A DNA stretch of 64,000 bases from an uncultured archaeon. Lineage in GTDB: Archaea; Nanobdellota; Nanobdellia; Pacearchaeales; GW2011-AR1. The position numbers and the translations under genes were made by a program. Shown here in pieces: positions 21,192 through 40,929 of this stretch. The stretch spans positions 9,116-73,115 of the forward strand of contig CAKZRD010000019.1 of the NCBI GenBank assembly GCA_937143345.1, in the 5' to 3' direction. A model generated the notes under the pieces. The model was not told the origin of the DNA. It saw nothing but the letters and a program-made list of their open reading frames with translations, and did not search any database. Numbering within the stretch: position 1 is the stretch's first letter; every line of letters starts with the position of its first letter.

Positions 21192-21479
21192 ATGATAAAC
21201 TGGATTTTAATAATAATTGCTTTTTTAATAGTGCTTTCTTTTTTGAAAGTTGAACATTTTACAAGAATTTTTATTTTTATTTTATTATTATCTTTATTTT
21301 TATTTTTATTTTTTTCTTTTAATAAAATGATTAAAAGAGGCGAAATTTCTTTTGATTCTCCTCGTTCAACTTTAAATGCGTTTATAACTTATGGAAGATA
21401 CATTGAAAACGAGACAAAAAATATATTCAATACAACAAAAAAAGGAATAAATTTTGTTGGTGATGTTATAAGAGGTTAG
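21192..21479 (+). CDS. Small hypothetical membrane protein
   Basis: 95 aa with two predicted TM helices. No motif. Confidence 0.25.
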   Translation: MINWILIIIAFLIVLSFLKVEHFTRIFIFILLLSLFLFLFFSFNKMIKRGEISFDSPRSTLNAFITYGRYIENETKNIFNTTKKGINFVGDVIRG

Positions 21480-22003
21480 GATTTTATTTTCATTCCGATA
21501 GATATTTTGCCAAGTTCGCAAAAATTATAAACATATTCTTGGCTGTCTTTTATTTTCTTACAAATAGAAACATAGGAAGAGTATTCCATTTGTTGGGTTT
21601 GTTCTGGATTTTCATAAACCTTATAATAATTACATCCTAAAGAAGGGCATTCTTTCAATGTTGAAAAATTTCCTCCTATCTTAAAAATCCTTATCGAAGA
21701 TATAGGCCAAAATTCTGAATAAAGTTGATTTATTTCTTCTATCTTCATCACAAAAATTTTATCTTCATCAATACAAAAAGAGCTTCTTTCAGAACAAGAG
21801 AACTCCGGCAATTGGGAAAAAGATTCTAAAATGTTTAAAACTTGTTCTCTTTCTCTTTCTTGCGCGCTTGTCCTCATTTCTCCTAAAAAAACCTGTAAAA
21901 GAAAAAGCCCGACTAATGTAAAAAAGAAAAAAACTGCTAATATCATAAATGCCATTTGTTGAATTCTCATCTGAGATTTTTTCATTCCGACCATAGTTTG
22001 CAT
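21476..22003 (-). CDS. Small pilin-like/hypothetical protein with N-terminal hydrophobic helix
   Basis: MKKSQ-MRIQQMAFMILAVFFFF: a K/R-rich head then a hydrophobic helix. Last gene of the large minus-strand module. Confidence 0.35.
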   Translation of the reverse strand: MQTMVGMKKSQMRIQQMAFMILAVFFFFTLVGLFLLQVFLGEMRTSAQEREREQVLNILESFSQLPEFSCSERSSFCIDEDKIFVMKIEEINQLYSEFWPISSIRIFKIGGNFSTLKECPSLGCNYYKVYENPEQTQQMEYSSYVSICKKIKDSQEYVYNFCELGKISIGMKIKS

Positions 22004-22929
22004 TGTGTTCTCTCCTCCAATTCTTTTAATAGTTTAGAGATAGAATAAATTTCATCTATGTTTTTTGAATTAAAACATACATTTCTTAGTTCAATTAAAG
22101 TATCTTCTAAATTCGTAGGGCAATTTCTTGAAGACATTCTTTCTGATTTTTCTTTATAAATTAAAGAAAGAACTCCTGCTTTGTAAAGAATTCTTTTTAA
22201 GTTGCATTCATAAATTTCTTTATCTGAAAAAATTGCCGGATACAAAAAGTTTCCGACATAATCAATCCTTTCTCCTTCTTTTATGACAAAACCTTTTTCA
22301 TATTTGTCATCACACCATGATTCTATGCAATCACTTATTATTGTAATATCGCATTTGGTACCATAATTAAAACAAACCTTTATTGAATTTTTAGTACAAT
22401 TATCTTCTCCGAAAATTGCTTTATCTCCTAAAACTGAAATATGTGTTTTGAAAGAAGGAAGGTCCTCATAACCTTCAAGAAAACAAAACTCTCTCGAATC
22501 AATAATTAAAACATCTGTTACTTTGAAGCCGAAATTTATCGGAATGGAAAAAAAATAAAACTTTTTAGAAGGTTCTTTTGAAAAATAAATATATTTGTCC
22601 TTTATCGTTATTTCCTCTCCCAATATATTAAAATCCTCGTTTAAACCTCTTATTTGTTTTGCTGAAAGTTTTTGATAGCCGAAATTTGACGAATCACAGA
22701 AAGAGTCAAAAACAATCTCTCTTTTTGAAGATAATACTCCTTTTGAAGAAGATACGAAACCTGCTTGCATTGGGTCTAAAAAAACAGAAACTTGTTTTGT
22801 TAATTCTGTATCTTGATAAAATTTTATTGTTGTTCCTGTTCTTACTGCAGCATAAATCATTAAAACGAGAATTGCACTTCCTGCTAAAATTGCAAAAAGC
22901 CAAACAAAATTAAAATCTCCTTTTTTCAT
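21982..22929 (-). CDS. Pilin-like protein (class III signal peptide-like N-terminus)
   Basis: MKKG-DFNFVWLFAILAGSAILVLMIYAAV. 315 aa with a Cys-containing globular part. Confidence 0.4.
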   Translation of the reverse strand: MKKGDFNFVWLFAILAGSAILVLMIYAAVRTGTTIKFYQDTELTKQVSVFLDPMQAGFVSSSKGVLSSKREIVFDSFCDSSNFGYQKLSAKQIRGLNEDFNILGEEITIKDKYIYFSKEPSKKFYFFSIPINFGFKVTDVLIIDSREFCFLEGYEDLPSFKTHISVLGDKAIFGEDNCTKNSIKVCFNYGTKCDITIISDCIESWCDDKYEKGFVIKEGERIDYVGNFLYPAIFSDKEIYECNLKRILYKAGVLSLIYKEKSERMSSRNCPTNLEDTLIELRNVCFNSKNIDEIYSISKLLKELEERTQCKLWSE

Positions 22930-22958
22930 AAAGCTTAAAACAAAATATCTTATTTAAA

Positions 22959-23456
22959 TTATTCTATGATTACAAATTTATCATAAATTCTTTTTGTAAA
23001 CTTTAAGTTTTCTTCTGCATAAACGCAATAAGGGTTCTTTGATTTAATTATTTCATCTATTTTAATGCGATTTATTTTTTTATAAGGGATATTACAAGCA
23101 GAATTGTATGGTATCAAAAAAACATTAGCATCTTCAAATTCAAAATCTGCAATTTCTTCATAATCTTCTCTATTTGTTATTGTTGAAGATAAATTCGCAA
23201 AACAAACTTTTTCTATTTCTGAAGGAAGATTTATTTTAAACTCTTTATTCTCAACAGAAGAAGCATAAAAAACCTTATCAACTTCCCTTTGCAAAGAATC
23301 ATAAAAATTGCCTATTTGAGTGCATTTGCTTATTTTAAAAAATTGTCTTATTCCGAAAAAAGTAGCTCCTATAAAAATAATTATGAGGAAAATCGCGAAT
23401 ATAACTCCAAAGGACATACCCATCGGGCCTTCTTGTCCTTTTTTGTTTTTTTCCAT
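22959..23456 (-). CDS. Pilin-like protein (class III signal peptide-like N-terminus)
   Basis: MEKNKKG-QEGPMGMSFGVIFAIFLIIIFIGA. 165 aa. Confidence 0.4.
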   Translation of the reverse strand: MEKNKKGQEGPMGMSFGVIFAIFLIIIFIGATFFGIRQFFKISKCTQIGNFYDSLQREVDKVFYASSVENKEFKINLPSEIEKVCFANLSSTITNREDYEEIADFEFEDANVFLIPYNSACNIPYKKINRIKIDEIIKSKNPYCVYAEENLKFTKRIYDKFVIIE

Positions 23457-23566: not shown

Positions 23567-26500
23567 TTAAAATAAGAAGTTTTTCCTCGGTCTAACTATT
23601 AAAGAACAACCTATTGGCTCATTTCTAAATTCGTCTCTGCATTTTATATAATAGGTTTTTTCATTATCCCAAGCAGTAACATGGACAGGAGAATTTGAGT
23701 ATGGCATCAACGTTCCTTCCTCGAATAAATAATCACAACTTTCTGTTGAATAAACACAATCAGATCTTCTGAATGTGACTATTTTTAAATAATCATCTTC
23801 ATGATAAGCTCTTGCAATAACAGGGGAAAAGGTATCTATTTCAAGTTCAAATTGTGCTTCCGCTTCCGCCAAATTTCCTCCTCCGTCAATGCATTTAATA
23901 TAATATTTATGAACTCCGCTGAAAAGATCTAATCTTTGCTTGCTTACTCCATCTGCTTTGTTTGTGTCAAAGAAAGGAACAAAACTCTTTTGCTCTCCTG
24001 TAAAAGAATAGAAACAAGTAGCTTTGTTGTTGTCGCAACCGAAGAGAGTTTCAACAGTTAAATTAACTGGCATCGGAGAAATTCCTCCATATATCGTTAT
24101 GTTGTTTGGAGAAATTGACTTAATTTTTAAATGGTTTGAACCACGAACTTTATAATTGAATGAATTTGCCATTGTATTTCTTTCTTTTTCTGGCATTCCG
24201 GGATTGTCTTTGCATTTTATGTAGTAATCTGTGCCGTCTCTTTTTACTCCTGTCAGATTCGCCCTGCAAGTATATAATAACAATGAATTTATTTCAAAAA
24301 CATGTTGTGTGCAAGACATATTGTAAGTCATTTGTTCAAAAGTTCTGTCATTAAAATCCCATTTACATTCTGCAGGCTCATCTGTGTAAAACTCAACTAA
24401 TGAGTGATTTTGATCAGCTGTGACACAACTTCCGCTTTCAACAGAAACTGCTTTGATTTGTGGTGGTGTATTGTCTGGCTCATCATCTACACAAAACCTA
24501 ACAGAATAAGGAACAGTGTTTAGATTTCCTTTTGCATCTCTACACATTAAATAAAGAGTCATTTCTTTTCCCATTTCCAAAGTTAAAGAAGAATTTTTAA
24601 GATCTTTTGCTCTTGGAACATGAAGAATTTCTGTGAAATTTTTTCTGTAAGTGTTGTCTCCTCCCATAAAAGAAAGCATTTCTTCAAAAGAATTTTTCTT
24701 TTCTAAATCTATTTTGCATTGTGCTGGTTCGTTTGTTGTTACGCCAAATTGTATTGGTGAGAATGCTTTAATACATGCATTTAGTCCTTCTGTTCTTATT
24801 ATTTTAAAGCCAGGTCCTGGAGGAGAAGTCCTGACATCTGTGTATGTATAACCTTCTGTTAAAACTTCTTTCCATGGAGTAATTACTGGTGGGGAAACCT
24901 CTCTTGTGCTGTTATCAACACAAATTCCTCCTTTTTCTCCTTGACTAATAAAAGCACATGTTTGACCTAGAGATTTACAACGATATTCTGAACAAGGCAA
25001 TTGGTCGTGATTACACAACTCACAATCCTCTCCTCCGTGTGGCGCTTGCCAAGGAAGACATTTAAACTCTACTCGCTCTTCGAACTTTTCTGTTTTTTCA
25101 TAATTCTTAACATAATGATACCAGGCCACACCGACACCTATAGCTATTGGAACAAATTTTTCATAGAAACCTGCCCCTAATTTTTCACCAAAACTAAAAA
25201 ATTTATTTTTTGCTGCCAATTGAGCTAAACTTTTTTCTTCATTGGCAGATCCAAACCATTTAGCAGTCATAATTCCCCTCATAGTATTAAAAGAGGTAAC
25301 TCCGAAAAAAATTGCTTTTTTTATTGTCTCAACTTGCCCTTCATCTGTTCCAGCCATTTGTGCAACAAACCCTGCGAATTCTGAAACTACTTTTCCCCAT
25401 AAAAGACCTTCTGCTAAATGATAAACTGGCCAAAAAAAACTTTGGTTCTGGGTTATATTCCATCCCAATCCTGGAATTCTTCTTGGGGGATGATCGCCGG
25501 GAGGAAGGGTGGGTTCTACTTCTCTTCCGCCTACGCTACTCACCGCAGTTGGTGCTCCTGATGGTCCACTATTATGTACAAGCACTCCCTCGGCAAAAAA
25601 CCACTTTCCGCCCAAATCCAAATCATAAACATCTATTGGCTCATCTAAGACAACTTTCTCAATACTCTCAATAAAAACCTTCTCAGAATTTATTCCTTGT
25701 AAATAATCTCCGACAACCGCGTTCCCGATAGGTTGCCATTTTCCATTCAACAAAACCTCGTGATTAGGAGTAATCTCTAAAATTTTATTAACAATCAAAT
25801 ACTCGGATTTCCAAGAAACAATAACATCTCGAACAATTTCTTTAGTCAATTTCCCTGTTTCAAAATCATAAGATAAAACTTCTTCTCCTGGTTTTATGGA
25901 GGAGATGGGTTTTGTTGATAAATCTGCGAGTGAAATACTACTACTTAAACAAGTTCCTGGCGACTTAACTTCCTGAGTTTTACCACCCAAAATATCCTTT
26001 AAATAACTAGTGTCTTGAACAAGATTACCTTCCACCAAACTAAAAACCTTATTTGGATTTCCATCGTCTCCAAGAGAGTATAATGCAATAATTTTCTTGT
26101 CACTCCCTATAGAAATCCTATTAATTCCCTGAGAAACTGCCTGTCTATATAAATCGTCCGAAAGCAAATCTAAAAAATTAGCTTCCTGAATAGTATATTC
26201 TGTCGCATTAACCATCCACATCCCACCAATCAAATAAGCAAAGCTAACAACTCCAAGAACCAACATTCCAATCTGCATAAAGCCCAATCCTTTTTTATTA
26301 ATCATTTCCCCTAGTCTCTCTCTCTCGAGATTTAAATTTAGTTCTTCAAGCATTTCATCAGTTAAATATGTTCCATCGGATAGATAAGGAAGAGAGATTT
26401 GAGTTTTGGGGGAAAGACAATTATCTTTTAATCTTTCAGTTCGTGGAATCTTTGAAGAACCATCTATCGATAAAGATTCATAACTAAAAGCTTTTCTATT

Positions 26501-26725
26501 AATATCTACCAAATCTGCTGATTCATAAAAATCAAAAAGCCCTGTTTGTTGATTATAAAATGCTAAATAAACCTTATCTCCAATAATTACATCACCATGA
26601 TAACTTAACATCGATTCTTTTTCATTCGTACTCCCAATTCTAATAAACCAAACCATCGCAACAACAGACAAAACCAACATTAAAACAGAACTTACAGAAA
26701 AAATCTTCGCTATTTTGGTTTTCAT
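23567..26725 (-). CDS. Giant polytopic Cys-rich surface protein with an embedded Hint (intein-like) domain
   Basis: 1052 aa with an N-terminal TM and additional hydrophobic segments. The Hint domain begins CLSSSISLADL and ends VLVHN|S. The C-terminal part is clearly paralogous to the C-terminal half of the 1360 aa protein (shared ...PCSEYRCKSLG...TPWKEVLTEGY... and repeated YYI[KR]C.D..GN modules). Confidence 0.6.
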   Translation of the reverse strand: MKTKIAKIFSVSSVLMLVLSVVAMVWFIRIGSTNEKESMLSYHGDVIIGDKVYLAFYNQQTGLFDFYESADLVDINRKAFSYESLSIDGSSKIPRTERLKDNCLSPKTQISLPYLSDGTYLTDEMLEELNLNLERERLGEMINKKGLGFMQIGMLVLGVVSFAYLIGGMWMVNATEYTIQEANFLDLLSDDLYRQAVSQGINRISIGSDKKIIALYSLGDDGNPNKVFSLVEGNLVQDTSYLKDILGGKTQEVKSPGTCLSSSISLADLSTKPISSIKPGEEVLSYDFETGKLTKEIVRDVIVSWKSEYLIVNKILEITPNHEVLLNGKWQPIGNAVVGDYLQGINSEKVFIESIEKVVLDEPIDVYDLDLGGKWFFAEGVLVHNSGPSGAPTAVSSVGGREVEPTLPPGDHPPRRIPGLGWNITQNQSFFWPVYHLAEGLLWGKVVSEFAGFVAQMAGTDEGQVETIKKAIFFGVTSFNTMRGIMTAKWFGSANEEKSLAQLAAKNKFFSFGEKLGAGFYEKFVPIAIGVGVAWYHYVKNYEKTEKFEERVEFKCLPWQAPHGGEDCELCNHDQLPCSEYRCKSLGQTCAFISQGEKGGICVDNSTREVSPPVITPWKEVLTEGYTYTDVRTSPPGPGFKIIRTEGLNACIKAFSPIQFGVTTNEPAQCKIDLEKKNSFEEMLSFMGGDNTYRKNFTEILHVPRAKDLKNSSLTLEMGKEMTLYLMCRDAKGNLNTVPYSVRFCVDDEPDNTPPQIKAVSVESGSCVTADQNHSLVEFYTDEPAECKWDFNDRTFEQMTYNMSCTQHVFEINSLLLYTCRANLTGVKRDGTDYYIKCKDNPGMPEKERNTMANSFNYKVRGSNHLKIKSISPNNITIYGGISPMPVNLTVETLFGCDNNKATCFYSFTGEQKSFVPFFDTNKADGVSKQRLDLFSGVHKYYIKCIDGGGNLAEAEAQFELEIDTFSPVIARAYHEDDYLKIVTFRRSDCVYSTESCDYLFEEGTLMPYSNSPVHVTAWDNEKTYYIKCRDEFRNEPIGCSLIVRPRKNFLF

Positions 26726-26901
26726 TTCTTCACCTCTTTAATTATTTGTTTTAATAAAGGAACTTTTTTAATTAACAACCGTGATTTATGAAAATTCGCC
26801 ATCTGATAATAAAATAAATCCTTATTCATATTAAACCTTAGAGCTTGTTTTTTTATTTTTTAATAGTAGAATAATTATTTCGAATGTTATGTTCTTTCTA
26901 G

Positions 26902-29211
26902 TCATCTTTTCTCCTCTACAATAAATTTAATTCCTGTTCCATAATCTCCGAGTGAAAGCCCTTTTTTTGAACTCCCGCCAGAAACAATTCGTTCTGGAAG
27001 ATCTTTTCCAGAAATTTTTTCCCATAGTTTTTGAGAGAAAGATTTTTCTTCTTTTATTTTTTCGTATTTAATTTCTTGAGGAAAACTTAATTTTTCAACT
27101 TTGACCTCTTCCCCATCCCTAGCAATGATTAAATCACCTTTTTTTAATTCCTCTATTTGTTTTAAAGAATATTTTTCTTCGTTTTTTAGCAGAACAAAAC
27201 TTCCTTTATTTATTTCTATTTTATCATTGATTAAAATTTTGTTTTTATTTTCCTTTATAACGAAAGCTGTTCCTCTTTTAGCGTGGCCTTGGTTTATTCC
27301 ACCTAATAAACTAAATGAAGAATTTTTATATTTCCAAGAATATCCATCGTCGGTATATTTGTCATTTATATTTACATTTGCCCCGCAATCTCCGATAGAT
27401 GTACAAATCGCATTTACTTTTTTAGCCCAATCTGCTTTAGGTATAAGCGAATATTCTTTTGAATTTCCAGAGGGTGCTTTTCCGCCTTCCCATTCTAAAC
27501 ACTCGCTTTCAATCTCTATTCCGCTTTCATTAATCATCTTGAAATTATACTCTTTATCTCCAAAAGGTCCAGCTAAACTTTCGTATTTTTCAGTTCTTAA
27601 TATTGTCACCTTACAAACAGCACTTGCTATCTCGCAATTCCCTTGTCCAAGCCAAAATTTATTACCTGGGGGGATTAAAGGAACACAAATTCCTCCCTCG
27701 TCTTCCTCGCTTTTATTGAATTTTGTAACTTTGTTTAAAATATCATAATCAAATTCCCAAATTCCTTTTCCGCTTGAAACAAAAGGTGCTAAAGCATTTG
27801 TTGTTATAACTTTTCCTGCCGACATGGAACCGAAAGCACTGGATGCTTGTTGTGCTAAACCTATTCCTTGCATTGCGTTATCAAAACCTGATTGTTTGCT
27901 TGTTGGATTTTGAAATTGCGAAAAAGAATTTGAAAAAGAAGATTGCTGTTTATTCCAATTTAATCCCTCTACATCATCAATCCAAATACAATCTCTTACA
28001 TCTATATTTTCACAATCTCTCTTTCTCCATTGCTGAACACAATCTTGCCATCTATTTACTCTACAGGCAGCAGTTGAAAATTCTCCAGAAGAAGTTTGGA
28101 TTCCTGAATGTATGCAAATTTGGTTTCTAAAATCAGCACAAGGGTCACTAACGACTTCCCCGTCTATACAAATTTGTCTAAAATGCCTTGAACCAGCTTT
28201 TTCATAGCCCTTTCCTGGCTCTATATCATAAACACACCAGCTCTCACCATTTATTCTTGTTTTTCCACTCATGTCTTTACAGGTTGTTCTTTTACAAATA
28301 AATTCTCCTTCTTTCCCTAGATTTGTTTTCTTCCCATCTTTGCTTGAACAAATACTTCCTAAAAGATAATCACAATTTCCGCAAGAAGTACTTCCGTCAT
28401 TACGAGGACAAATAGTATCTGGGTCTGCAACTCTACCTTTATTCCAGGACTTATCTTTGTTTGAAGAATAAACATTCTCCCTGTTCCCGCAAGAGTCAAA
28501 CCAATAAACTTTTCCTTTGTAGCAACCAACATAATTTTGTCTGGCACATTCTGTATTTAATTCTTCAGCAGAACAAAGAACATTTTTATAAAATTTTTTT
28601 CCTGTTTCTTGCTCTAAAATTGATTTGTTTACATTTAAAGCGATAACTCCATCTCTTGCTCCGCAATCTTTTCTCGTCGTAAATTTACACTCATTAACTC
28701 CTGTTCCTGTATAGGTAACACAAGCCCCCATATCTTGCCCGTTGGCTAAAAAAATACATTCTGATTCGTCAGTTACAGATGTCTTAAACTCCATCGTTAT
28801 TCCAAAGTATGTTGAAAGTTTTTTACATCTTGCTAAAGTAACTAAAGCAGCTTGGTCTGAAATTAAACAACAACCTAGACGACAAGTTGGAAGTTCTGAA
28901 GCAGATTTCTCACTCCAAGTTCCGTTTCTTTCTTGACAGATTTTTTGTGGAACATTTTCCATACAAATTCCTTCCTTTGTGTCATAACAAGTTCCCGTTT
29001 TACAGAAAGAGGTCTGCGCACAAGAAGAAGGAGCTATTCTGAAAGAAGAATCACATTCATTTTCTTGCGCGTTTAAACAAAATCCTCCACTTTTTGTTTT
29101 CTCGCAACAAAAGGAAGGAACAGAAATTATTGCAGAAGAAAAACTAATAAAAAAAAATAAAAATAATAAAAATATTGTTTTATTCATGGATATTCTCCTG
29201 CTGCTGGCCAA
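26902..29211 (-). CDS. Secreted Cys-rich protein
   Basis: 769 aa with a signal peptide. Paralogous to the N-terminal half of the 1360 aa protein: shared CCxxTKxGxxC, GCC motifs, CGNCDY..GSICS, GESWCVYD, GSRHF. Confidence 0.6.
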   Translation of the reverse strand: MASSRRISMNKTIFLLFLFFFISFSSAIISVPSFCCEKTKSGGFCLNAQENECDSSFRIAPSSCAQTSFCKTGTCYDTKEGICMENVPQKICQERNGTWSEKSASELPTCRLGCCLISDQAALVTLARCKKLSTYFGITMEFKTSVTDESECIFLANGQDMGACVTYTGTGVNECKFTTRKDCGARDGVIALNVNKSILEQETGKKFYKNVLCSAEELNTECARQNYVGCYKGKVYWFDSCGNRENVYSSNKDKSWNKGRVADPDTICPRNDGSTSCGNCDYLLGSICSSKDGKKTNLGKEGEFICKRTTCKDMSGKTRINGESWCVYDIEPGKGYEKAGSRHFRQICIDGEVVSDPCADFRNQICIHSGIQTSSGEFSTAACRVNRWQDCVQQWRKRDCENIDVRDCIWIDDVEGLNWNKQQSSFSNSFSQFQNPTSKQSGFDNAMQGIGLAQQASSAFGSMSAGKVITTNALAPFVSSGKGIWEFDYDILNKVTKFNKSEEDEGGICVPLIPPGNKFWLGQGNCEIASAVCKVTILRTEKYESLAGPFGDKEYNFKMINESGIEIESECLEWEGGKAPSGNSKEYSLIPKADWAKKVNAICTSIGDCGANVNINDKYTDDGYSWKYKNSSFSLLGGINQGHAKRGTAFVIKENKNKILINDKIEINKGSFVLLKNEEKYSLKQIEELKKGDLIIARDGEEVKVEKLSFPQEIKYEKIKEEKSFSQKLWEKISGKDLPERIVSGGSSKKGLSLGDYGTGIKFIVEEKR

Positions 29212-29951
29212 GGATAGCTCCTCACAGCGAAGTTAAATTTAATTTTCTCATTTTTTTCTATGACTGAATAAACCTTAACTTCATTATCTGTTCTTGTCTT
29301 TAAAATTTTTATGTTTGGATAAAAAAACATTTGTTGCATTTGTTCGCTATCTCCGTAATATGTTTCAAATTGAATTAAAGACGTTGCTATCATCAAAACT
29401 TCGTAAAGATTTGTTTTGAAATTATAACTTAAGTTTTTAATTGAGGAAGAAGATTCTCCGTGTGAAATTTTTGCTGGAGCGTTTATCTTAATTTTGATTT
29501 CTTTAGGTTCTATTGATACAGAATAAGAAATTTCTCCTTCTTCAACATCTATTCCTCTTCTTTTTAACTCACTTATAGATTTTTTATAACATTTTTCAAA
29601 ATCTTCTTTAATTAATTCTTTCAGTGATTCTTCAAACCTATCTTTTAAAAAAGGTTCTTGATTAACGCAAGGTGTTAGATATTCGTTTGTGTAACATAAG
29701 AAAGTATAATTTTCTCCTTTATAAAAATGAACAAATTTTGGCTCTAAAAATCCTGCTGTTTGAGCAAGAGATTTTATTTTTTTAGAAAGGCTATCATCTA
29801 GACAGCTCTCAAAACTTCTACTAAAACCAAGCGGTAAAGTTAAACCTCTTATAAATTCTGGTTTAAAATAATAAAAAAGAAAAAAAATGCTGAAAATGAA
29901 GATTAACCCAAGTATTATAAATAAAGTAACTTGTCCCCTTTTATTCTCCAT
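29184..29951 (-). CDS. Small membrane-anchored protein with class III (pilin-like) signal peptide; paralog of 34065..34829
   Basis: MENKRG-QVTLFIILGLIFIF has Gln at +1 after K-R-G. 255 aa. Similar length, N-terminal motif and position to its paralog. Confidence 0.45.
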   Translation of the reverse strand: MENKRGQVTLFIILGLIFIFSIFFLFYYFKPEFIRGLTLPLGFSRSFESCLDDSLSKKIKSLAQTAGFLEPKFVHFYKGENYTFLCYTNEYLTPCVNQEPFLKDRFEESLKELIKEDFEKCYKKSISELKRRGIDVEEGEISYSVSIEPKEIKIKINAPAKISHGESSSSIKNLSYNFKTNLYEVLMIATSLIQFETYYGDSEQMQQMFFYPNIKILKTRTDNEVKVYSVIEKNEKIKFNFAVRSYPWPAAGEYP

Positions 29952-29985
29952 TTTTTTAAAAAGAAAATTAGGTTTATAAATTCTT

Positions 29986-32900
29986 TTATAAATTAATAGG
30001 TTTAATTATTGCTGAGCATTGATTTAAAATGTTTAGTTTTTTGTCTCTGCATCTTATATAATAAGTTTCATAAGGATATGCTGTAAAGTTATGTGATCTT
30101 GATAAGTATTTTATTTCACTCGGAAGTTCATAGTTACAAAGAGTTGTTTTGTTTGTATTATAAAAGCATTCTGCTTCCTCGTCTGTTTCTAAAGAAAGTT
30201 TTCCATCTTTGTATAAAGCTCTTTGTATTAAAGGAGGAGTTTCATCAAAGAATACTGAAAAGTTAAAAGTTTCTTCTGCAATATTTCTTGCTTCGTCTTC
30301 ACATTTTACATTGATTGAATAATTACCTTGTGGAAACGTGAGTAATTGATTATGTTCTGTTTTACCTGTTTCAAAGAAATTTATGAACGAAGAAGAAAAT
30401 CCGGGGACATTGTAAGAGCAAAATGCGTTTCCTATGCATCCGAAAGTTCTAACAGAAAGAGTGAAATTTTTTTCCTCTATTAAATTTTTTCTATTTAACA
30501 AAGAAATATTTAATCCATCTTTACAAACATTTAAAACATATTCTTTGCTTACAAAATTAATATTTCTTTTATAATATTCTGTTTCTTCTTTTAAATTTGG
30601 TTGGTCATTACATCTAAAATAAAAAGTGTTTTTCCCTTCTGTTAAATTATCAATCTTTGTAAAACAAGTCCATTCTCCGAGGAAAACGCTTTCTTGTGAA
30701 GTTAAACAAGTCATATTGTTAGACATATCATAGAAACCTTCATTTCCGCTAACTACATCATACTCTTTAACAAAACGGCATTCTGCTGGCTCGTTAAGAT
30801 AAAGAATTACGGATGTTGAATTTGTTCCTTTTTTCAAATAAATCCCATTTGGAGGATTAAATCTTCTTAATTCAGCAGGAGTTAGGTCTGGACCTTGTTT
30901 AACTTTAACTTGAACGACAAATTCTGCTTCATTAACTTGACCTGCAAAATTTAAACATCTTATATAATATTCATTTTCTTCTCCGATTGTTAAACCAAGA
31001 GTATTTTTAGATGCGTTTTTGTCTTTTAAAAAACCGGAAAGTGTTATTTTGTGAGTTAATCCATCAGATTTTCCTGTTTCTGGATTAATATCTGAAATCA
31101 TCTCGAATTTCATTTCATCATAGCTTTTTGTGTGTTCATAATCAATCCTACAAGTTGCTGGTTTGTCAGTTTTTATTCCGAAAGTTAAATCTCCCCAAGC
31201 TTCTATTCCTTCGCCGTTTTTTCCAGCAATTCTAAATCCACTATCTCTTACATTTATATAAGAGTAACCTTCTGTTAAAACTTCTTTCCAAGGAGTTATT
31301 TTTGCTTTCCATATCTCGCTTATAGAATAACAATATCCTGGTTCTCCTTTCTCAATAAAGTAATGACAATTGCTTCCCAGTGATTTACATCTGTATTCAG
31401 AGCAAGGTCGGACGTCGTCGTTGCAAATATCGCAGTTTCCATTTTTTGGTGGTTGCCATGCTTCGCATGAGAAAGACATTATGTAATATTCGTATTCATC
31501 AAAACTATCGTCAAAACAATTTTTATACACTGAAGTAGAGATAGCAGCAACGACGGCTACAGCACAGACAGGATTTATAAAACCAGTCGCCCCACAAATG
31601 GTGCCAGTCAACTTAAGAATAACAACGGTTGCTGAGACAAAAACAGTAGACATTGCGGCCATCAAACCCTCGATAAACTTCCTTTCTAGTCCAGGACTCC
31701 AATTTTGATTCTTAGCAATAAGCTTTCCAAGCTGATATCCAACATAAGACCCAATTATTGCTGTGGCTGCCAAGGTTAAACCAGCTTTTAAATTCATCAG
31801 CCAGTTTGGATTTGTAACAGTCGTACTAACTTTTCTAGTTAAACCTAAATATTTCTGAAGCCCATCTAAAAAGGTAGATCCTGTCTCAAAAAAAGGAACA
31901 GTGCTAGTAGTTGTGACGGAAGTTGTTGTTAGGGCCTTCCAACCACCCATCGCCAATCCTGCCATAGTTAATGGCCCAGCAAAATTAACAATTTCCTGCA
32001 AAGAACTAGAAGAGCTTCCAACACTCACGCCCTTAGAGAGTTCATTTAAATCTATAGTTGTCTTATTTATATCACCAGCAGTCCAGGCACTATCTGCAAT
32101 ATCCGCAGACAAACCGGAGGAGATAGATTTGAGATCATTTAATTTTTTAAAAGAAGCAATGGGTTTTTTAAAAGAAGCAATGTAATCTCCTGGAAGAGTA
32201 TAATTACTAATTGAAATATTCCTATTCTCCCCCTTCCTGTCTATCTTGATTCTTTGAACAGAGAAGCCCGGAAAATCTTCATTGACTTCTCCAATTATAT
32301 TTGAAGAAACACCACAACTTCCCAACGCCCTACATCGCTCATTCATTGCAGACATGAGATTAGGTAGATCTTTTGTCTTTATATTAACATTTGCTCCATC
32401 GATATTGCACTCCCAATTTGCTTCATCTTCCCATGGATCGCAGTCTACATCTTCTGGATTTATTAGTTCTGAGATCCCATAAGAATAAGCACAGAGTGTA
32501 GTACTTATCAATCCCTTCAATTGAAGATTGGTCTCATCGACCATCTGGCATTTTCTTTTTACACTAGATATGCAAGTAAAACTCCCCAAACTACAAATTG
32601 CATTTGTTTCTTCATTGCTTCCACCATAATTTGCTGTGGAGAATTGTTTTTGTTTTTGAGAAGGATTATAGGAATCTGAACCTCTTCCTACAATTTTAGT
32701 ATTGGTATTCCAAAATTGAAAACCTGGAGTAAATCTTGGAACACAATGAGCTAAAAGTTTATTTTGGTCTTTTCCTAAATCATCTATTGCACCTTGTTCT
32801 GCATTTGTTTTTTCTGGATCAAAACCTGCAAGAAATTTACCGTCACTTCTTTTTAATTTATCTTCACCATAAAATTCGTTAAACATAATGCATTGTGGGT

Positions 32901-34068
32901 TTTCTTCGCATTTCTTTTCAACTTCAGAATAAGACTCAGCATCATTTGCATTGAGACAACTTCTCCAATCGTTTATTAAGCATTTTGCCTCAGTGTAACC
33001 TGAATCAGTATTTTGAACACAGATTTCTTGCATGAAATCAGCACACCCCTCTATAGAAATTTGACCCTCGAAACAACGAGCAATAAAATGTCTAGAACCT
33101 ACCGGAGCAATTCCTTCTAACGGATTAAAGTCATAAACACACCAGCTTTCCCCGTGCTTTTTGTTGTTGCAATGCAAGCTTTTGCAAACATAATCTCCTA
33201 ACGAAGGTTTTTGCGTTTTTCCTTTCTCGTATTTTGCACAAATACTTCCTCTAACATAATCGCAATTTCCACACGACGGACTTTCAGGAGAACAAGATTC
33301 TTCTGGAGGAATTGGTTTTTCCCAATAGGTTTGATTGTTTGCTTTGGAAGAATCATAAATGTTTGCTACATTACCACAGGAATCAAGAAAATAAACTTGA
33401 TCTCTATCTTCGACACATGTTGTTTTATTAGTTGGTTTACATATTGTGTTTAATTCTTTTGATGTACATAAATAACCTGGTTTAAAATCTCCTGTTTTAC
33501 AATTTTTTTTTGAAGTATAAACGCAGTTTTTTTCTCCTGAAAAATCCCCTGAATCTGAAAGACACGCTCCTAACTCTTCTAAACCGATATATTTTTCACA
33601 ACTTTCCCCACTCGAAAAAGGAATAAATTTTTTTTCAAAATTATATTTATTCGAAAGAAGAGTACACTCTCTCGAATTAACTAAAGAAACTTGGTTTCCA
33701 AGGATACAACAACCTAATTGACATTGTGGAATGTTGCATGAAATATCATCGCTCCAATTCCCTCCATTTTCTAAACATTTTTGTTTTGGCGACCTTAAAG
33801 AGCAAGTTCCTGTAGAAGAAGAATAACAACAACCAAGTTTGCATTCACCTACTGAAGAGCATTTTGTGGCAAATAGGTTTTCCTTACACAAATCTGCTTG
33901 AAAAAAAGGAATATCTTGGCAAATGGCTCCTTCTTTTGTTTCTCTACAGCAGCCTTTGAATGAGTCGGTTTGTGCGGAAACTAATTCTCTTTCTGAAATT
34001 AAATAGGCAAAACTAAATATTGCTAAAATCAATATTAAAATTTCTAAAAAAGCAATTTTTTTTTTCAT
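29986..34068 (-). CDS. Giant (1360 aa) Cys-rich surface/membrane protein, fused version of the 769 aa + 1052 aa pair
   Basis: Signal peptide. N-terminal Cys-rich region paralogous to the 769 aa protein. Central multi-TM hydrophobic region. C-terminal repeated beta-rich modules ending YYIRC.D..N, paralogous to the 1052 aa protein. No Hint domain. Confidence 0.6.
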   Translation of the reverse strand: MKKKIAFLEILILILAIFSFAYLISERELVSAQTDSFKGCCRETKEGAICQDIPFFQADLCKENLFATKCSSVGECKLGCCYSSSTGTCSLRSPKQKCLENGGNWSDDISCNIPQCQLGCCILGNQVSLVNSRECTLLSNKYNFEKKFIPFSSGESCEKYIGLEELGACLSDSGDFSGEKNCVYTSKKNCKTGDFKPGYLCTSKELNTICKPTNKTTCVEDRDQVYFLDSCGNVANIYDSSKANNQTYWEKPIPPEESCSPESPSCGNCDYVRGSICAKYEKGKTQKPSLGDYVCKSLHCNNKKHGESWCVYDFNPLEGIAPVGSRHFIARCFEGQISIEGCADFMQEICVQNTDSGYTEAKCLINDWRSCLNANDAESYSEVEKKCEENPQCIMFNEFYGEDKLKRSDGKFLAGFDPEKTNAEQGAIDDLGKDQNKLLAHCVPRFTPGFQFWNTNTKIVGRGSDSYNPSQKQKQFSTANYGGSNEETNAICSLGSFTCISSVKRKCQMVDETNLQLKGLISTTLCAYSYGISELINPEDVDCDPWEDEANWECNIDGANVNIKTKDLPNLMSAMNERCRALGSCGVSSNIIGEVNEDFPGFSVQRIKIDRKGENRNISISNYTLPGDYIASFKKPIASFKKLNDLKSISSGLSADIADSAWTAGDINKTTIDLNELSKGVSVGSSSSSLQEIVNFAGPLTMAGLAMGGWKALTTTSVTTTSTVPFFETGSTFLDGLQKYLGLTRKVSTTVTNPNWLMNLKAGLTLAATAIIGSYVGYQLGKLIAKNQNWSPGLERKFIEGLMAAMSTVFVSATVVILKLTGTICGATGFINPVCAVAVVAAISTSVYKNCFDDSFDEYEYYIMSFSCEAWQPPKNGNCDICNDDVRPCSEYRCKSLGSNCHYFIEKGEPGYCYSISEIWKAKITPWKEVLTEGYSYINVRDSGFRIAGKNGEGIEAWGDLTFGIKTDKPATCRIDYEHTKSYDEMKFEMISDINPETGKSDGLTHKITLSGFLKDKNASKNTLGLTIGEENEYYIRCLNFAGQVNEAEFVVQVKVKQGPDLTPAELRRFNPPNGIYLKKGTNSTSVILYLNEPAECRFVKEYDVVSGNEGFYDMSNNMTCLTSQESVFLGEWTCFTKIDNLTEGKNTFYFRCNDQPNLKEETEYYKRNINFVSKEYVLNVCKDGLNISLLNRKNLIEEKNFTLSVRTFGCIGNAFCSYNVPGFSSSFINFFETGKTEHNQLLTFPQGNYSINVKCEDEARNIAEETFNFSVFFDETPPLIQRALYKDGKLSLETDEEAECFYNTNKTTLCNYELPSEIKYLSRSHNFTAYPYETYYIRCRDKKLNILNQCSAIIKPINL

Positions 34069-34829
34069 ATTCCTGCTGGCATCACACAGGTACGAATTGC
34101 AAATTTAATTTCTTTATTGTCTAAGGACTTTAAAGTATAAACTTTTGTTTGATCACCACCCCTAAATCTTTCAATTTTAACATTTCTGTTGAGAGCTTGC
34201 CATATCATAAAATCGAATTCACAAAATGAGCTTTCGTAATTATTTATTGCTTCAGCAGTTCTTAATAAATAAGGAAGAGAAGATTTAACTTTCCCATTTA
34301 AAGAAGAAACAGAAAAAGAAGTTTCTCCTTTAGATATTTTTATTTCTGATTTTAAGTTATAAGAAATTTGTTGTTCCTCGAATATTAATTCAAACAAAAA
34401 AGAATCGTATTCAAAAGAATATCCTTTATTTTCATAATCTTCTTTTAAAATTAAAATTGCCCTTGATAAATCTCTAGAAATTTTATTCTCCATTTTTTTT
34501 CTTATAGATTCAATAAAAAGCGGGGATTGTTGAACGCAAGGAAAATAAAATTCTGTCGAATAACAAGAAAAGGGAACTTTTTCTTCCTTGTATAAATAAA
34601 AAATCTTAAACTCTTCTAAAAATCTTTTTTCCTTAAAGAAGTCTTCTTCATTTTGTTTTATAGAGTTTTCAATACTTCTTTTTATTAATAAATTGGGATC
34701 AGAAGAAGGTCTTTTAAAAAAAGAAATATCTTTGTTAAACAAAAAAAGAAAAAGAATTAAACCAGAAATTAAAACACCTGAAACAATAAAAATTGAAATT
34801 TGTGCTCTTTTTTTAAAAAAAAATTTCAT
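34065..34829 (-). CDS. Small membrane-anchored protein with class III (pilin-like) signal peptide; paralog of 29184..29951
   Basis: MKFFFKKRA-QISIFIVSGVLISGLILFLFLF. 254 aa. 4-nt overlap with the downstream giant gene. Confidence 0.45.
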   Translation of the reverse strand: MKFFFKKRAQISIFIVSGVLISGLILFLFLFNKDISFFKRPSSDPNLLIKRSIENSIKQNEEDFFKEKRFLEEFKIFYLYKEEKVPFSCYSTEFYFPCVQQSPLFIESIRKKMENKISRDLSRAILILKEDYENKGYSFEYDSFLFELIFEEQQISYNLKSEIKISKGETSFSVSSLNGKVKSSLPYLLRTAEAINNYESSFCEFDFMIWQALNRNVKIERFRGGDQTKVYTLKSLDNKEIKFAIRTCVMPAGI

Positions 34830-36279: not shown

Positions 36280-37761
36280 ATGGAAAAAGAAAGCAAAATA
36301 AAATTAGTTTATTTAGGTTATTATTCAAGAAAAGAAATAAAAAAAACAATATTTGAGTTTTGTAAAAAAAGAGAAACGATACCTAAGTATTATGATTTTT
36401 TTGGAAAAAGACCTGACAGATTAGAATATGAAGATGATGTTTATAATCTTGCAAAAAAAGGAGCTACTAGTTTTCATTGCTCTCAGGAACTTTGGGGAAA
36501 TCCACTTAATATAAAAACGGAAAAAAATTTAAATGAATTGAGGGAAGGTTGGGATTTTTTAATAGATATAGATTCAAAATATTTTGATTATGCGAAAATT
36601 TCTGCTAAAATAATAATAAATGCTTTGAAATTTCATGGAATAAGAAATTTTGGGATCAAATTTTCAGGATCCAAGGGCTTTCATATAATCATTCCTTGGA
36701 AAGCATTCCCCGAGGAATACGATGGAGTAAAAACAAAAAACATGTTTCCTGAATGGCCAAGAATAATTGCAAAATATCTTCAAGAAGAATTTATTAAAAA
36801 GAACTTAGAAAGTTATATTGAAAAAAATGCAAAAGAAGATTCTCCTAAGGAAATTTTTTACCTTCCAACTAATGAAAAAGCACTTGAAGGTTTTTTTTAC
36901 GAATTTGTTTGTGAAAAATGTAAAACAAAGATTACTTCTTTCTTCGATAAAAAAACAAAAAAAAGAGTTTTTAAATGTTCTGTATGCAAAGGTTTAATTA
37001 AAAAAATTAAAGAAGAAAAAATTTATTTTTCTCCAGACAAAAAATTCAATTCTATAAAGAATAAAGAAATGTTTAAAGAAAAGATTAATAATCAAAAAGA
37101 TCTTAATTGTGTTGATTTGGTTTTGGTTGCACCAAGGCATTTGTTTAGAACACCTTATTCTCTTCACGAAAAAACCTCTCTTTGCTCCTGTGTTTTAGAA
37201 GAAAAAGATTTGGAAAATTTCTCACCTAACGACGCGAAACCAGAGAATATAAAAATAAAAAATTTTTATCCTATAGCGAAAGAAGAAGAAGCAAAGAAGC
37301 TTTTGATAAATGCTCTTGACTGGGAAAAAAGAAAAGAAAAAAAAGATTATACTTTAAAAGAAAAAAAAGAGATTGATTTAAGTGGAATAAAAATTGATGA
37401 GAGTTATTTTCCTCCGACGATATTAAAAATTCTTCAGGGGATAAAAGAAGATGGGAGAAAAAGAGCTTTAACTATACTACTTTCTTTCTTTGTTTCTTTA
37501 AATTTGTCTAAAGAGTATATAGAAGAAAAAATTAATGAATGGAATAAAAAAAACTATCAACCGTTAAAAGAAGGTTATATTAACTCGCAGATAAGTTGGT
37601 TTTTAAAAAATAAAAGATTACCACCGAACTATGATAGGTCAATTTACAAGGAATTAGGGGTTTTAGAAGAAACGGAAGGTTTTAAAAATCCAATTAATTA
37701 TACTATAAGTAAAATATTAAAAAAAGAGTTACAAATAAAGAATAATAAAAAAATAAAATGA
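36280..37761 (+). CDS. priS: DNA primase catalytic subunit PriS with C-terminal helical extension (PriL-CTD/PriCT-like)
   Basis: Catalytic Asp motif WDFLIDIDSKY. SGSKGFHIIIPW (the SGxRGFH signature). Zn knuckle CEKCK...CSVCKG. The C-terminal ~150 aa (ILQGIKEDGRKRALTILLSFFVSLNLSKEYIEEKINEWNKKN) resembles a primase C-terminal helical domain without an Fe-S Cys cluster. Confidence 0.75.
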   Translation: MEKESKIKLVYLGYYSRKEIKKTIFEFCKKRETIPKYYDFFGKRPDRLEYEDDVYNLAKKGATSFHCSQELWGNPLNIKTEKNLNELREGWDFLIDIDSKYFDYAKISAKIIINALKFHGIRNFGIKFSGSKGFHIIIPWKAFPEEYDGVKTKNMFPEWPRIIAKYLQEEFIKKNLESYIEKNAKEDSPKEIFYLPTNEKALEGFFYEFVCEKCKTKITSFFDKKTKKRVFKCSVCKGLIKKIKEEKIYFSPDKKFNSIKNKEMFKEKINNQKDLNCVDLVLVAPRHLFRTPYSLHEKTSLCSCVLEEKDLENFSPNDAKPENIKIKNFYPIAKEEEAKKLLINALDWEKRKEKKDYTLKEKKEIDLSGIKIDESYFPPTILKILQGIKEDGRKRALTILLSFFVSLNLSKEYIEEKINEWNKKNYQPLKEGYINSQISWFLKNKRLPPNYDRSIYKELGVLEETEGFKNPINYTISKILKKELQIKNNKKIK

Positions 37762-39653: not shown

Positions 39654-39687
39654 AAATATTTATTAATCTTAAAAATTCTTTCTTTTT

Positions 39688-40929
39688 ATGAAAAAACAGA
39701 TAATTTTTTTTATAGCATTATTTTTCTATTTCTATTCTGTTTATTCTTTTGATTTAAAAAGCTTGAATGGAGAAGTTTATGCAGGAGAAACTTTTATAGC
39801 TGAATTTGAAGCTGATTTAAAAAGCAATTTAAAAAAAGAAGATCTAAAAGTTTATGAAGAAAGAAGAGAAGTTTATTTTGAAAAAGGAATTTTTTCTTAT
39901 AAAAATAAAACTTTTATTTATGTAGTTTTTCCAAAAAAAGGAAATTTTTCTATTCAAACTGATAATCTTTTGTATTATGAAAACGGTACTTTAATGGAAA
40001 AAAAAATAAATAAAATTATAAATGTTGAAGGGAACAAAACTGAAATTCTTCAAATAAGTCCTGGAGTTGTTATAGGAAATAATTTAAGTTTCTCATTGTC
40101 GAATAAAGGAAATAAAATTATTAAAGGAAAATTCCAAAACCAAACATTTGAATTGAATGAAGGAGAATCAAAGAATTTTTTTATTAAACCTGAAAAAGAA
40201 TTTTTTTACTTAAACATAGAAAGTTATAAAAGTTTTAAAATTCCCGTAGTTTACTTTCCATTAGAAAATGAAACAAAAAATAATGAAAACAAAACAAATA
40301 ATAAAACAATTAATGAATCAATAAAAGAACCAATAAAAAATAAGACGGAAATTAAAAAAGTAGAAATAAATGAAAGCTTAATAGAAAAATTTTTTGAAGT
40401 AAACAAAACAGAGGTTGTTTCCTTTTATGTTAAAAATTTAGTTAATGAAAAAATTAATCTCTTATTAAAATGTAAAATAAAAAACTTAAACTTTTCTAAG
40501 GATTATAACTTGTCTCCATTTGAAGAAAGAGATATTTTTTTGTTTTATAGTCCGAATGAAACAGGGAATTATGAAGAGAACTTAACAATTTTTTACGAAA
40601 ATGAAAGTTTGAATATTACATTAAAATTCTTTGTTATAACAAAAGAGAGTTTAAAAATAAAAGAAAGAATAGGAGATAATGAAAAAAAATTAACATCTTG
40701 CCAAGAAATAAATGGCACTCCGTGTTCTCAATCTGGCTTTACTTGTAAAAATGGAAATAATGTTCCTTTCGTCGGTATAGGTTTTTGTTGTATTGGGGGA
40801 GAATGCGTAAAAATAGAGGAAGTAAATGAAAAAAAAAACATATCAAATTATGTTGTCGGAGTTGTTTCTTTTATTATTTTAATAATCATAGTTTATCTCA
40901 TAATCAAGAAATATAAAAAAGTTAAGTAA
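39688..40929 (+). CDS. Secreted protein with C-terminal Cys-rich stalk (CCIGGECVK) and TM anchor
   Basis: Signal peptide, many N-x-S/T sequons, C-terminal GIGFCCIGGECVK motif shared with the preceding gene, then a TM. Confidence 0.45.
   Translation: MKKQIIFFIALFFYFYSVYSFDLKSLNGEVYAGETFIAEFEADLKSNLKKEDLKVYEERREVYFEKGIFSYKNKTFIYVVFPKKGNFSIQTDNLLYYENGTLMEKKINKIINVEGNKTEILQISPGVVIGNNLSFSLSNKGNKIIKGKFQNQTFELNEGESKNFFIKPEKEFFYLNIESYKSFKIPVVYFPLENETKNNENKTNNKTINESIKEPIKNKTEIKKVEINESLIEKFFEVNKTEVVSFYVKNLVNEKINLLLKCKIKNLNFSKDYNLSPFEERDIFLFYSPNETGNYEENLTIFYENESLNITLKFFVITKESLKIKERIGDNEKKLTSCQEINGTPCSQSGFTCKNGNNVPFVGIGFCCIGGECVKIEEVNEKKNISNYVVGVVSFIILIIIVYLIIKKYKKVK

Follow-up and report, generated by a model that had tools for sequence, protein, structure and literature searches.

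The DNA analysed here (the window) is a 64,000-nucleotide stretch of contig CAKZRD010000019.1 from an uncultured archaeon of the Pacearchaeales, with a G+C content of ~29%. On its minus strand, from position 34829 to 21476, eight genes lie head to tail, encoding proteins of 254, 1360, 255, 769, 1052, 165, 315 and 175 amino acids (aa). Three of them are the main subject of this study: the gene for the 1360-aa protein (whole gene, 29986..34068) and the consecutive genes for the 769-aa protein (26902..29211, counted from a TTG codon) and the 1052-aa protein (23567..26725). All three open reading frames (ORFs) are present on the minus strand at these positions. According to the original prediction, the Cys-rich N-terminal half of the 1360-aa protein is a paralog of the 769-aa protein and its C-terminal half a paralog of the 1052-aa protein, owing to a tandem duplication followed by a split of one copy or a fusion of the other.

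Pairwise comparison bore out both relationships. In BLASTP, residues 40-372 of the 1360-aa protein aligned with residues 35-392 of the 769-aa protein (32% identity, E = 1e-55), and residues 827-1357 with residues 517-1046 of the 1052-aa protein (32% identity, E = 1e-63). In the latter alignment the motifs PCSEYRCKSLG and ITPWKEVLTEGY, quoted in the prediction, are in register, and each of the two C-halves contains three copies of the motif [YF][YF][IFV][KR]C. A profile made from 70 full-length homologs was matched by the 769-aa protein at positions 34-633 and by the 1052-aa protein at positions 725-1302, colinearly and without overlap; the similarity is thus one of colinear homology and goes far beyond a low-complexity spacing of cysteines. 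The 254-aa and 255-aa proteins are paralogs as well (27% identity, E = 1e-19), so the duplicated unit is a two-gene cassette. Tandem duplication is thereby supported, with a unit that also takes in these small genes: cassette A comprises the 254- and 1360-aa genes, and cassette B the 255-, 769- and 1052-aa genes. Together the 769- and 1052-aa proteins are longer than the 1360-aa protein by 461 aa, and this excess consists of modules that are absent from the fused protein, i.e. a tail, an element termed S, a second leader, a pre-Hint domain and a Hint domain. As predicted, the Hint domain is confined in this genome to the split copy, being present in the 1052-aa protein and absent from the 1360-aa protein.

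The 1360-aa protein contains 70 cysteines, distributed between the N-half (46), the middle (3) and the C-half (21). Its leader helix (aa 1-35, 33964-34068) is followed by a Cys-rich ectodomain (aa 36-620, 46 Cys, 32209-33963), a linker with hydrophobic helices (aa 621-865, 31474-32208) and a Cys-knot-like segment with beta-sandwich repeats (aa 866-1360, 21 Cys, 29989-31473). AlphaFold models built with family alignments reached a predicted local distance difference test score (pLDDT) of >90 for aa 30-420 and ~85-90 for aa 500-640 of the N-half, and >90 for aa 560-1045 of the C-half. The C-half forms tandem immunoglobulin (Ig)/fibronectin type III (FN3)-like beta-sandwiches, which in Foldseek matched receptor and adhesin ectodomains (E = 1e-14 to 1e-8) at the level of fold only; in the 1052-aa protein these domains and the Cys-rich segment before them occupy aa 546-1052 (23 Cys, 23570..25090; pLDDT >90 from ~aa 560). 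No significant match to the Cys-rich N-half (model of the 769-aa protein) was found in the PDB with Foldseek (best E = 0.68). The halves are separated by a linker of low complexity together with two or three long helices, clearly hydrophobic in the 1360-aa protein and moderately so in the 1052-aa protein, in which the AlphaFold (AF2) helices of the presumed membrane region (25091..25435) span aa 432-457, 462-487 and 518-541. Such an arrangement would anchor the C-half in the membrane and place it outside the cell. We infer that the two parts function as a secreted Cys-rich module and a membrane-anchored stalk of Ig repeats, and an adhesion-type role may be envisaged.

A search with the 1360-aa protein returned 518 homologs, of which the 120 best have, with few exceptions, a length of 1200-1450 aa and no Pfam annotation. 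No above-threshold match was obtained in a Pfam scan of the five cassette proteins, and nothing on this protein family was found in the literature. The best homologs of each examined protein come from Candidatus Pacearchaeota or “Nanoarchaeota” metagenome-assembled genomes (MAGs), and the family appears to be specific to DPANN archaea (Pacearchaeota and relatives), in which it would form part of a surface system. One full-length member, P0012 (1370 aa), carries the NCBI name “sulfite exporter TauE/SafE family protein”, which is probably spurious and prompted by the hydrophobic helices. The label of P0126 (67% identical to the C-half of the window), Candidatus Calescibacterium, i.e. a bacterium, suggests mis-binning.

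Separate halves are common in this family. Searches yielded more than 100 stand-alone N-halves of 560-770 aa (769-aa query) and ~45 proteins of 550-1024 aa that start at profile positions ~690-800 and comprise the C-half only, in agreement with the predicted separability of the two modules. Thirteen fused proteins among the matches of the 769-aa query are 41-46% identical to it, compared with 32% for the neighbouring 1360-aa protein. Neighbour-joining (NJ) trees were built for each half, and the fused or split state was reconstructed by the Fitch method after midpoint rooting. With either half, the 1360-aa protein falls in a lineage (A) whose members are all fused apart from truncated entries. 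In lineage B the basal members are fused and a large inner clade is mostly split; the 769-aa protein is placed in an all-split group of 51. The Woesearchaeota-labelled outliers P0174 and P0175 are fused as well. Fused proteins of ~1,300 aa are thus found in every deep branch, the stand-alone halves form a nested subfamily, and the reconstructed root state is fused.

The gene order of the window, i.e. ~255-aa gene, fused gene of lineage A, ~255-aa gene, N-half of lineage B and, further on, C-half of lineage B, recurs in seven other loci (L001 and L004-L009). These derive from different assemblies or samples, and their C-halves are 35-75% identical to that of the window. The split is also present in L010, and is conserved across L001 and L004-L010. 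In L001 the genes for the 774-aa N-half and the 918-aa C-half overlap by ATGA, the C-half starting at the equivalent of M141 of the 1052-aa ORF. The small genes following the C-half gene have homologs in the same order in L002 and L004 (BLASTP), and genes of similar size (matched by size only) follow it in L005-L007, L009 and L010. A split that followed a duplication within this genome is contradicted by the recurrence of the fused-A/split-B order at such divergence, and both the duplication and the split are old. Five related loci contain MNT/HepT or ParE toxin-antitoxin genes in the gap between the halves, which means that the halves need not be adjacent. MNT/HepT (HEPN) and ParE pairs have repeatedly inserted into this gap, which has the coordinates 6710-8591 in L004, 6317-7483 in L005, 7386-8004 in L006, 7307-8004 in L007, 6029-6981 in L009 and 4158-4764 in L012; in the window it carries no such insert. 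In a further locus, L011, the end of the ENA contig (1-140) carries an Illumina adapter (CAAGCAGAAGACGGCATACGAGAT…GTGACTGGAGTTCAGACGTGTGCTCTT) after poly-T runs, so the 534-aa C-half encoded there was truncated by an assembly artefact.

The N- and C-halves of cassette B constitute a real two-gene pair, as predicted, but they did not arise by a plain cut: the C-half holds the leader of the family, while the N-half has a different signal of the Sec type. A profile was derived from the N-terminal ~45 residues of split C-halves (consensus KK-x-[IL]-[SA]-x-F-[EQ]-I-x-L-L-I-x-S-I-F-A-F-[SA]-[YF]-[IL]-I … V-S-A) and matched the N-terminus of 120 of the 135 fused proteins and of 33 of the 47 C-halves (E down to 1e-14). 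In the 1052-aa ORF the match is internal, at aa 141-181 (26183-26305; E = 4e-15 against the collected family proteins and 2.5e-17 among the window ORFs), and none of the other secreted ORFs of the window was matched, which indicates that the C-half carries the family's own leader. When 160 leaders were tested for a class III (pilin-type) signal, E/Q was present at about position +5 in 93%, with G/A at -1 in only ~31%; a minority of the leaders conform to the strict class III pattern. The V-S-A sequence conserved after the leader helix fits signal peptidase I instead, and the Pfam scan revealed no pilin match for the cassette proteins.

The 769-aa ORF encodes a Cys-rich ectodomain with 41 Cys, preceded by the Sec-type signal peptide (…FSSA/IISVPSFCCEK). 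Its start is probably the first ATG, at 29187, which would give a protein of 761 aa and an ATGA overlap with the stop codon of the 255-aa gene; the 254- and 1360-aa genes overlap in the same manner. The database gene call P0176 matches the 761-aa start.

Comparison with orthologous genes shows that the 1052-aa ORF is composite and that M141 is its ancestral start. Orthologs of the C-half begin at the equivalent of this residue (MINKKGLGF…), and counted from it the C-half proper has 912 aa (23567..26305). In the preceding 140 residues (S element, 26306..26725), a hydrophobic helix and a small beta region are accompanied by a conserved motif at the C-terminus, CLSPKTQISLPYLSDGTYLTDEMLEELN. S exists as a separate gene in L005 (174 aa; 34% identity, E = 6e-17, first eight residues identical) and in L004 (143 aa; 31% identity, E = 1e-14), in both cases overlapping the start of a Hint-bearing C-half gene, whereas in P0150 it is fused in frame, as in the window. 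All four copies end with C-L-x-x-x-T-x-I-x-x-P-Y-L-x-[DN]-G-x-Y-L-x-D-E, in which positions 3-4 are S/T-P in three copies, and the first nine residues of this motif mimic block A of the neighbouring Hint domain. An origin of aa 1-140 as a degenerate duplicate of the 5′ end of the C-half gene was also considered, but only one weak colinear match was found (P0125, E = 0.04), and a conserved separate gene fits better. In L004 and L005, short pieces duplicated from the 5′ end of the S gene (70 aa and 31 aa) lie beside the inserts.

The spacer between the two ORFs (26726..26901, 176 nt) contains stop codons in all three frames and a GAGGTGA sequence 5 nt ahead of the ATG at 26725. The original prediction proposed that this spacer be examined for remnants of coding sequence; none was detected by comparison with family linkers, with the toxin-antitoxin genes of related loci or with other loci, the sole match being that of its last ~50 nt to sequence upstream of an S-gene copy in L005. 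A 35-codon ORF, MNKDLFYYQMANFHKSRLLIKKVPLLKQIIKEVKK, is present at 26723-26830 (minus strand), and its TGA overlaps the ATG of the 1052-aa ORF (ATGA); no match to it was found among the spacer-flanking genes and the compared loci.

Typical N-halves end ~98 residues before the C-terminus of the 769-aa protein. The additional residues (aa 672-769, 26905..27198) constitute a tail module, T, composed of a small beta module and the conserved C-terminus GLSLGxYGTGIK. T occupies the same position in P0177, P0178, P0180 and P0190, which are the N-half genes of L001, L007 and L008, with P0190 nearly identical to that of L005. In L006 and L009 it is a stand-alone secreted gene of 125-127 aa located directly after a tail-less N-half (E = 2e-8 and 3e-9), and in P0134, P0135, P0141 and P0151 (E = 8e-9 to 1e-3), as well as in L010, it is located N-terminally on the C-half; it is absent from fused family members. 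These three placements define T as a boundary module that is attached to either half or free. T gives weak Hint-like signals: hhalign aligned it with the block B region (probability 55%, E = 1e-4) and Foldseek gave local matches to mini-inteins (probability up to 0.96 over ~60 residues) whose whole-database E-values are non-significant; a Hint-like nature of this module is unproven. Obligate coupling of T and Hint was rejected, because T occurs without Hint in L008-L010 and Hint beside a tail-less N-half in L006.

The Hint domain of the 1052-aa protein (aa 259-385, 127 aa, 25571..25951) lies between the leader/pre-Hint region and a P/S/T/A-rich linker, and contains Cys1 (CLSSS), the block B motif TPNH, the terminal HN (VHN/S) and a Ser at +1 (aa 386). 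Only nine of the 295 collected family proteins carry this domain. All nine are C-halves, which corresponds to nine of the 47 split C-halves, so the Hint is not a consequence of the split. TPNH and HN are conserved in all nine, the +1 Ser in eight and Cys1 in seven. The two proteins that have lost Cys1, P0123 of L007 (Ile, with another Ile at +1) and P0150 of L002 (Tyr), retain TPNH and the terminal HN and are ~70% identical to the other Hints; judged by these residues, they may be degenerate or cleavage-only variants. The flanks differ in all nine proteins, each with a P/S/T/A-rich linker after the domain, and Hint-less C-halves bear unrelated inserts of 30-400 aa at this position. Two closely related pairs aside, the Hints are 63-73% identical to each other whether their host C-halves are 75% or 35% identical, which implies that the history of the domain is decoupled from that of its host.

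In a PDB sequence search, the nearest solved relatives were non-intein Hints (6y75/6tmm, E = 2e-10; Vint 8r2c, 1e-5; BIL 2lwy, 3e-5), with classical inteins at E = 7e-4 or worse. Among 1.8 billion library representatives, 2568 clusters matched the domain, many of them with 2-8 copies or a C-terminal location. Ten of the closest library relatives were scanned; all strongly passed the Pfam PT-HINT model (61-144 bits), and some of them also carry pilin-like (N_methyl, TadE), PKD or Big_9 domains. The domain was accordingly filed, from these similarities, as a putative PT-HINT/BIL-type autoprocessing domain and not as a classical or split intein; most likely it would cleave or splice the C-half precursor after export. 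In P0301 and P0302, which are among the closest relatives of this Hint, two Hints in tandem accompany either the N-terminal methylation motif of type IV pilins or a TadE-like domain, so that a helix-anchored N-terminus followed by Hint recurs beyond this family.

We consider that the locus is probably best explained by an ancient fission of the giant gene of cassette B, with modules gathered at the break. The region contains two tandem paralogous cassettes, each coding for a helix-anchored protein of ~255 aa and a giant envelope protein in which a leader helix, a ~600-aa Cys-rich ectodomain and a linker of low complexity precede two or three hydrophobic helices and an Ig-like stalk. Cassette A has kept its giant gene intact (1360 aa); in cassette B, fission at the linker would have left the N-half (769/761 aa) as a secreted product and the C-half (912 aa, counted from M141) as a membrane-anchored one. 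We regard tandem duplication with subsequent complementary loss as the most likely route, because the family leader is initially retained on both products. Within the old clade to which the window belongs, the leader of the N-half would later have been turned into an ordinary Sec signal. The boundary created by the split would then have become a site of module gain and shuffling: T was presumably gained, here on the N-half, the S gene was fused here in frame to the C-half to form the 1052-aa ORF, and the C-half presumably received a PT-HINT/BIL-type Hint, placed between its leader and its membrane helices. Within the family the break has probably occurred repeatedly.

The layouts predicted by tandem duplication and subsequent complementary loss do exist. 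Seven N-halves in a mixed clade keep the family leader, and one of these, P0256, shares 75% identity along its entire length with the N part of the fused protein P0227. The locus L012 has the order leader-bearing C-half (718 aa), 260-aa gene, MNT and HepT, leader-bearing N-half (631 aa), with both halves belonging to lineage B, and represents complementary loss in two tandem cassettes. The idea that the leader simply stayed with the C-half when the ectodomain was excised is weakened by the seven leader-bearing stand-alone N-halves.

The original prediction left the choice between fission and fusion open. A case for the direction can be made, and we judge fission the likely one, given that fused proteins occur in lineage A, at the base of lineage B and as the Woesearchaeota-labelled outliers, with the split forms nested among them. 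Fusion would require that two genes were ancestral, one for a secreted N-half and one for a leader-bearing C-half, and that the N-half coding region was inserted into the latter, between leader and membrane helices, to produce the 1360-aa type. The great number of stand-alone halves would agree with this, and the boundary that separates split from fused forms could, with the tree unrooted, be crossed once in either direction. Nevertheless, such an event demands a precise in-frame insertion inside a gene, not an end-to-end join, and the distribution of fused proteins outlined above is contrary to it. Moreover, fused proteins interspersed among the split ones all have the order leader-N-linker-C with no internal signal remnant, and the young leader-bearing N-halves, 75% identical to fused relatives, look freshly truncated; fusion is therefore improbable. 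For the interspersed fused proteins themselves, re-fusion was rejected, as their junctions contain neither an internal leader or signal remnant nor a Hint. A pseudogene or an assembly artefact, i.e. a fused gene broken by a nonsense mutation, a frameshift or misassembly, could be suspected because metagenome-derived DPANN genomes often contain fragmented genes and because a 176-nt AT-rich gap separates the ORFs. Its probability is negligible, since each half is encoded by a long, intact ORF that possesses a start, a ribosome-binding site and an export signal of its own, stops interrupt every frame of the spacer, which contains no family sequence, and the same split is found in at least eight loci (different assemblies or samples, 35-81% identity) and in more than 100 database clusters.

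Several observations weigh against parts of the fission account. The trees are midpoint-rooted, uncorrected NJ trees with no support values, and without a root one fusion is as parsimonious as one fission. The interspersed fused proteins in the split clade, thirteen in number, call for several fissions, gene conversion between paralogs or an error in the tree. N-halves of the window clade lack the family leader and have a different, shorter Sec-type signal, so that duplication and degeneration needs an extra step of signal replacement. As to membrane anchoring and the outside location of the C-half, hydrophobicity in the helical region of the 1052-aa protein is only moderate: within aa 431-545 the Kyte-Doolittle average over 19 residues nowhere reaches 1.6. 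Translation from 26725 would in addition place a second helix in the protein and invert the downstream topology, so that translation would have to begin at M141 unless the precursor is processed. Finally, the Hint of the window is below the Pfam gathering thresholds (18-19 bits versus 27-36), its PT-HINT (PF07591) score being 18.1 bits against a cut-off of 27.7.

The role of the Hint domain can also be read differently. It might be a selfish mini-intein that splices itself out cleanly and has no host role and no part in the relation between the halves. The full catalytic set (Cys1, TxxH, HN and +1 Ser), a length of 127 aa typical of mini-inteins and the presence of Intein_splicing among the weak Pfam matches agree with this reading, and a patchy distribution combined with a steady identity of ~63-73% suggests mobility. 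We nonetheless regard it as unlikely, if still worth considering, because the domain sits between unconserved flanks in a variable low-complexity loop, not in a conserved functional site, where Hint-less homologs have unrelated inserts. There is no homing endonuclease, two of nine copies have lost Cys1 with the rest intact, and the closest solved and library relatives are PT-HINT, Vint and BIL domains, often tandem or C-terminal in secreted proteins.

In a split-intein-like system, trans-splicing would rejoin the halves through complementation between the Hint of the 1052-aa protein and the tail of the 769-aa one. Such a system would account for the position of the Hint exactly at the fission boundary and for the weak Hint-like signals in the tail. 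It is very unlikely, however: the Hint of the 1052-aa protein is complete (blocks A, B, F and G), neither a nucleophile nor TxxH is present at the aligned positions of the tail (NKGS in place of TPNH), the fold matches of the tail are non-significant at the whole-database level, and in the loci named above the tail occurs without the Hint and the Hint beside a tail-less N-half. The modules at the break (Hint, the partly Hint-like tail and S) may alternatively act as an extracellular docking or ligation device that re-attaches the N-half to the C-half, either covalently via a Hint thioester or non-covalently via fragment complementation. We consider this highly doubtful; if true, it would amount to a post-translational reversal of gene fission.

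The remaining genes of the region encode mostly small proteins. The 254-aa protein of cassette A (34065..34829, minus strand) has an N-terminal hydrophobic helix of pilin-type (class III) appearance, KKRA/QISIF, and its ortholog in L001 is 66% identical; the stop codon of its gene overlaps the start of the 1360-aa gene (ATGA). Its paralog in cassette B (255 aa, 29184..29951, minus strand) starts with KRG/QVTLF followed by a hydrophobic helix and has orthologs in L001, L004, L011 and L012. The three downstream genes (165, 315 and 175 aa; 21476..23456, minus strand) each encode an N-terminal hydrophobic helix. All five small proteins (175, 315, 165, 255 and 254 aa) open with a short basic stretch and a long hydrophobic helix, and N-termini such as KRG/QVTLF, KKRA/QISIF and KKG/DFNFVW resemble archaeal class III (pilin-type) signals. 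Archaeal replication genes, encoding PCNA, the primase small subunit and a DAC-domain protein, adjoin the region. Next to the primase gene, at 37758-40929, a 631-aa secreted protein (signal MNKKKKLIFFLYLILFNSFFVFA) and a 413-aa protein are encoded, neither with an above-threshold Pfam match; ORFs of similar size (655 and 420 aa) are present at the equivalent position of L001 (3007-6292).

Gene fission of this kind is already known. Duplication followed by complementary degeneration is the model proposed for the Drosophila monkey-king genes. The cassettes described here are alike in that tandem paralogs lose complementary parts and both products keep the original 5′ end, in this case the leader (L012); they differ in their prokaryotic operon context, the export of the products, the replacement of the N-half signal in the old clade and the accretion of T, S and Hint. 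The split genes of Nanoarchaeum equitans encode informational enzymes, and their pieces are scattered over the genome. The likeness to these and other DPANN split genes lies in a reduced-genome DPANN host, a multi-domain protein encoded as two genes and a break at a domain boundary. Here, in contrast to N. equitans, the halves are adjacent, the product is an uncharacterised surface protein, an intact paralog is situated alongside and the layouts recur.

The Hint of the window shares with BIL/PT-HINT domains (PF07591) its length of 127 aa, Cys1, TxxH, the terminal HN and a location in a variable region of an exported protein. It differs from them in its sub-threshold Pfam score, archaeal host and activity, which is a prediction here, and in lying near the N-terminus ahead of membrane helices and an Ig stalk and not before a C-terminal toxin. 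With classical and split inteins it has in common the Hint fold and the full set of splicing residues including +1 Ser, but there is no conserved host motif and no endonuclease, the domain is not divided between two genes, and the similarity is weaker (E = 7e-4 or worse). The string of Ig/FN3-like beta-sandwiches resembles, by predicted fold, Ig adhesins and receptor ectodomains such as the grappling-hook protein GhpA, the extender repeats of an ice-binding adhesin and PTP-delta. This likeness is at the fold level only (8-14% identity), and the proteins described here are distinguished by conserved cysteines in each domain, an attached helical membrane region and, in the fused form, a ~600-aa Cys-rich ectodomain that has no match in the PDB.

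The locus opens no long-standing question, and the family, its replicated layouts and the Hint at the boundary represent a useful but moderate finding. The layouts fit a duplication-degeneration route to gene fission in a prokaryote, and the PT-HINT-type domain in an archaeal surface protein is a cheap target for experiments. Hundreds of “hypothetical proteins” from Pacearchaeota MAGs can now be assigned to N-half, C-half, T, S or Hint modules. For the family itself, the loci amount to a natural experiment, well replicated, that bears on the domain boundaries of a giant and uncharacterised DPANN envelope protein: the comparison shows that the Cys-rich ectodomain can work as a polypeptide separate from the Ig-repeat stalk, and that the linker ahead of the membrane helices has undergone repeated breaks and remodelling.

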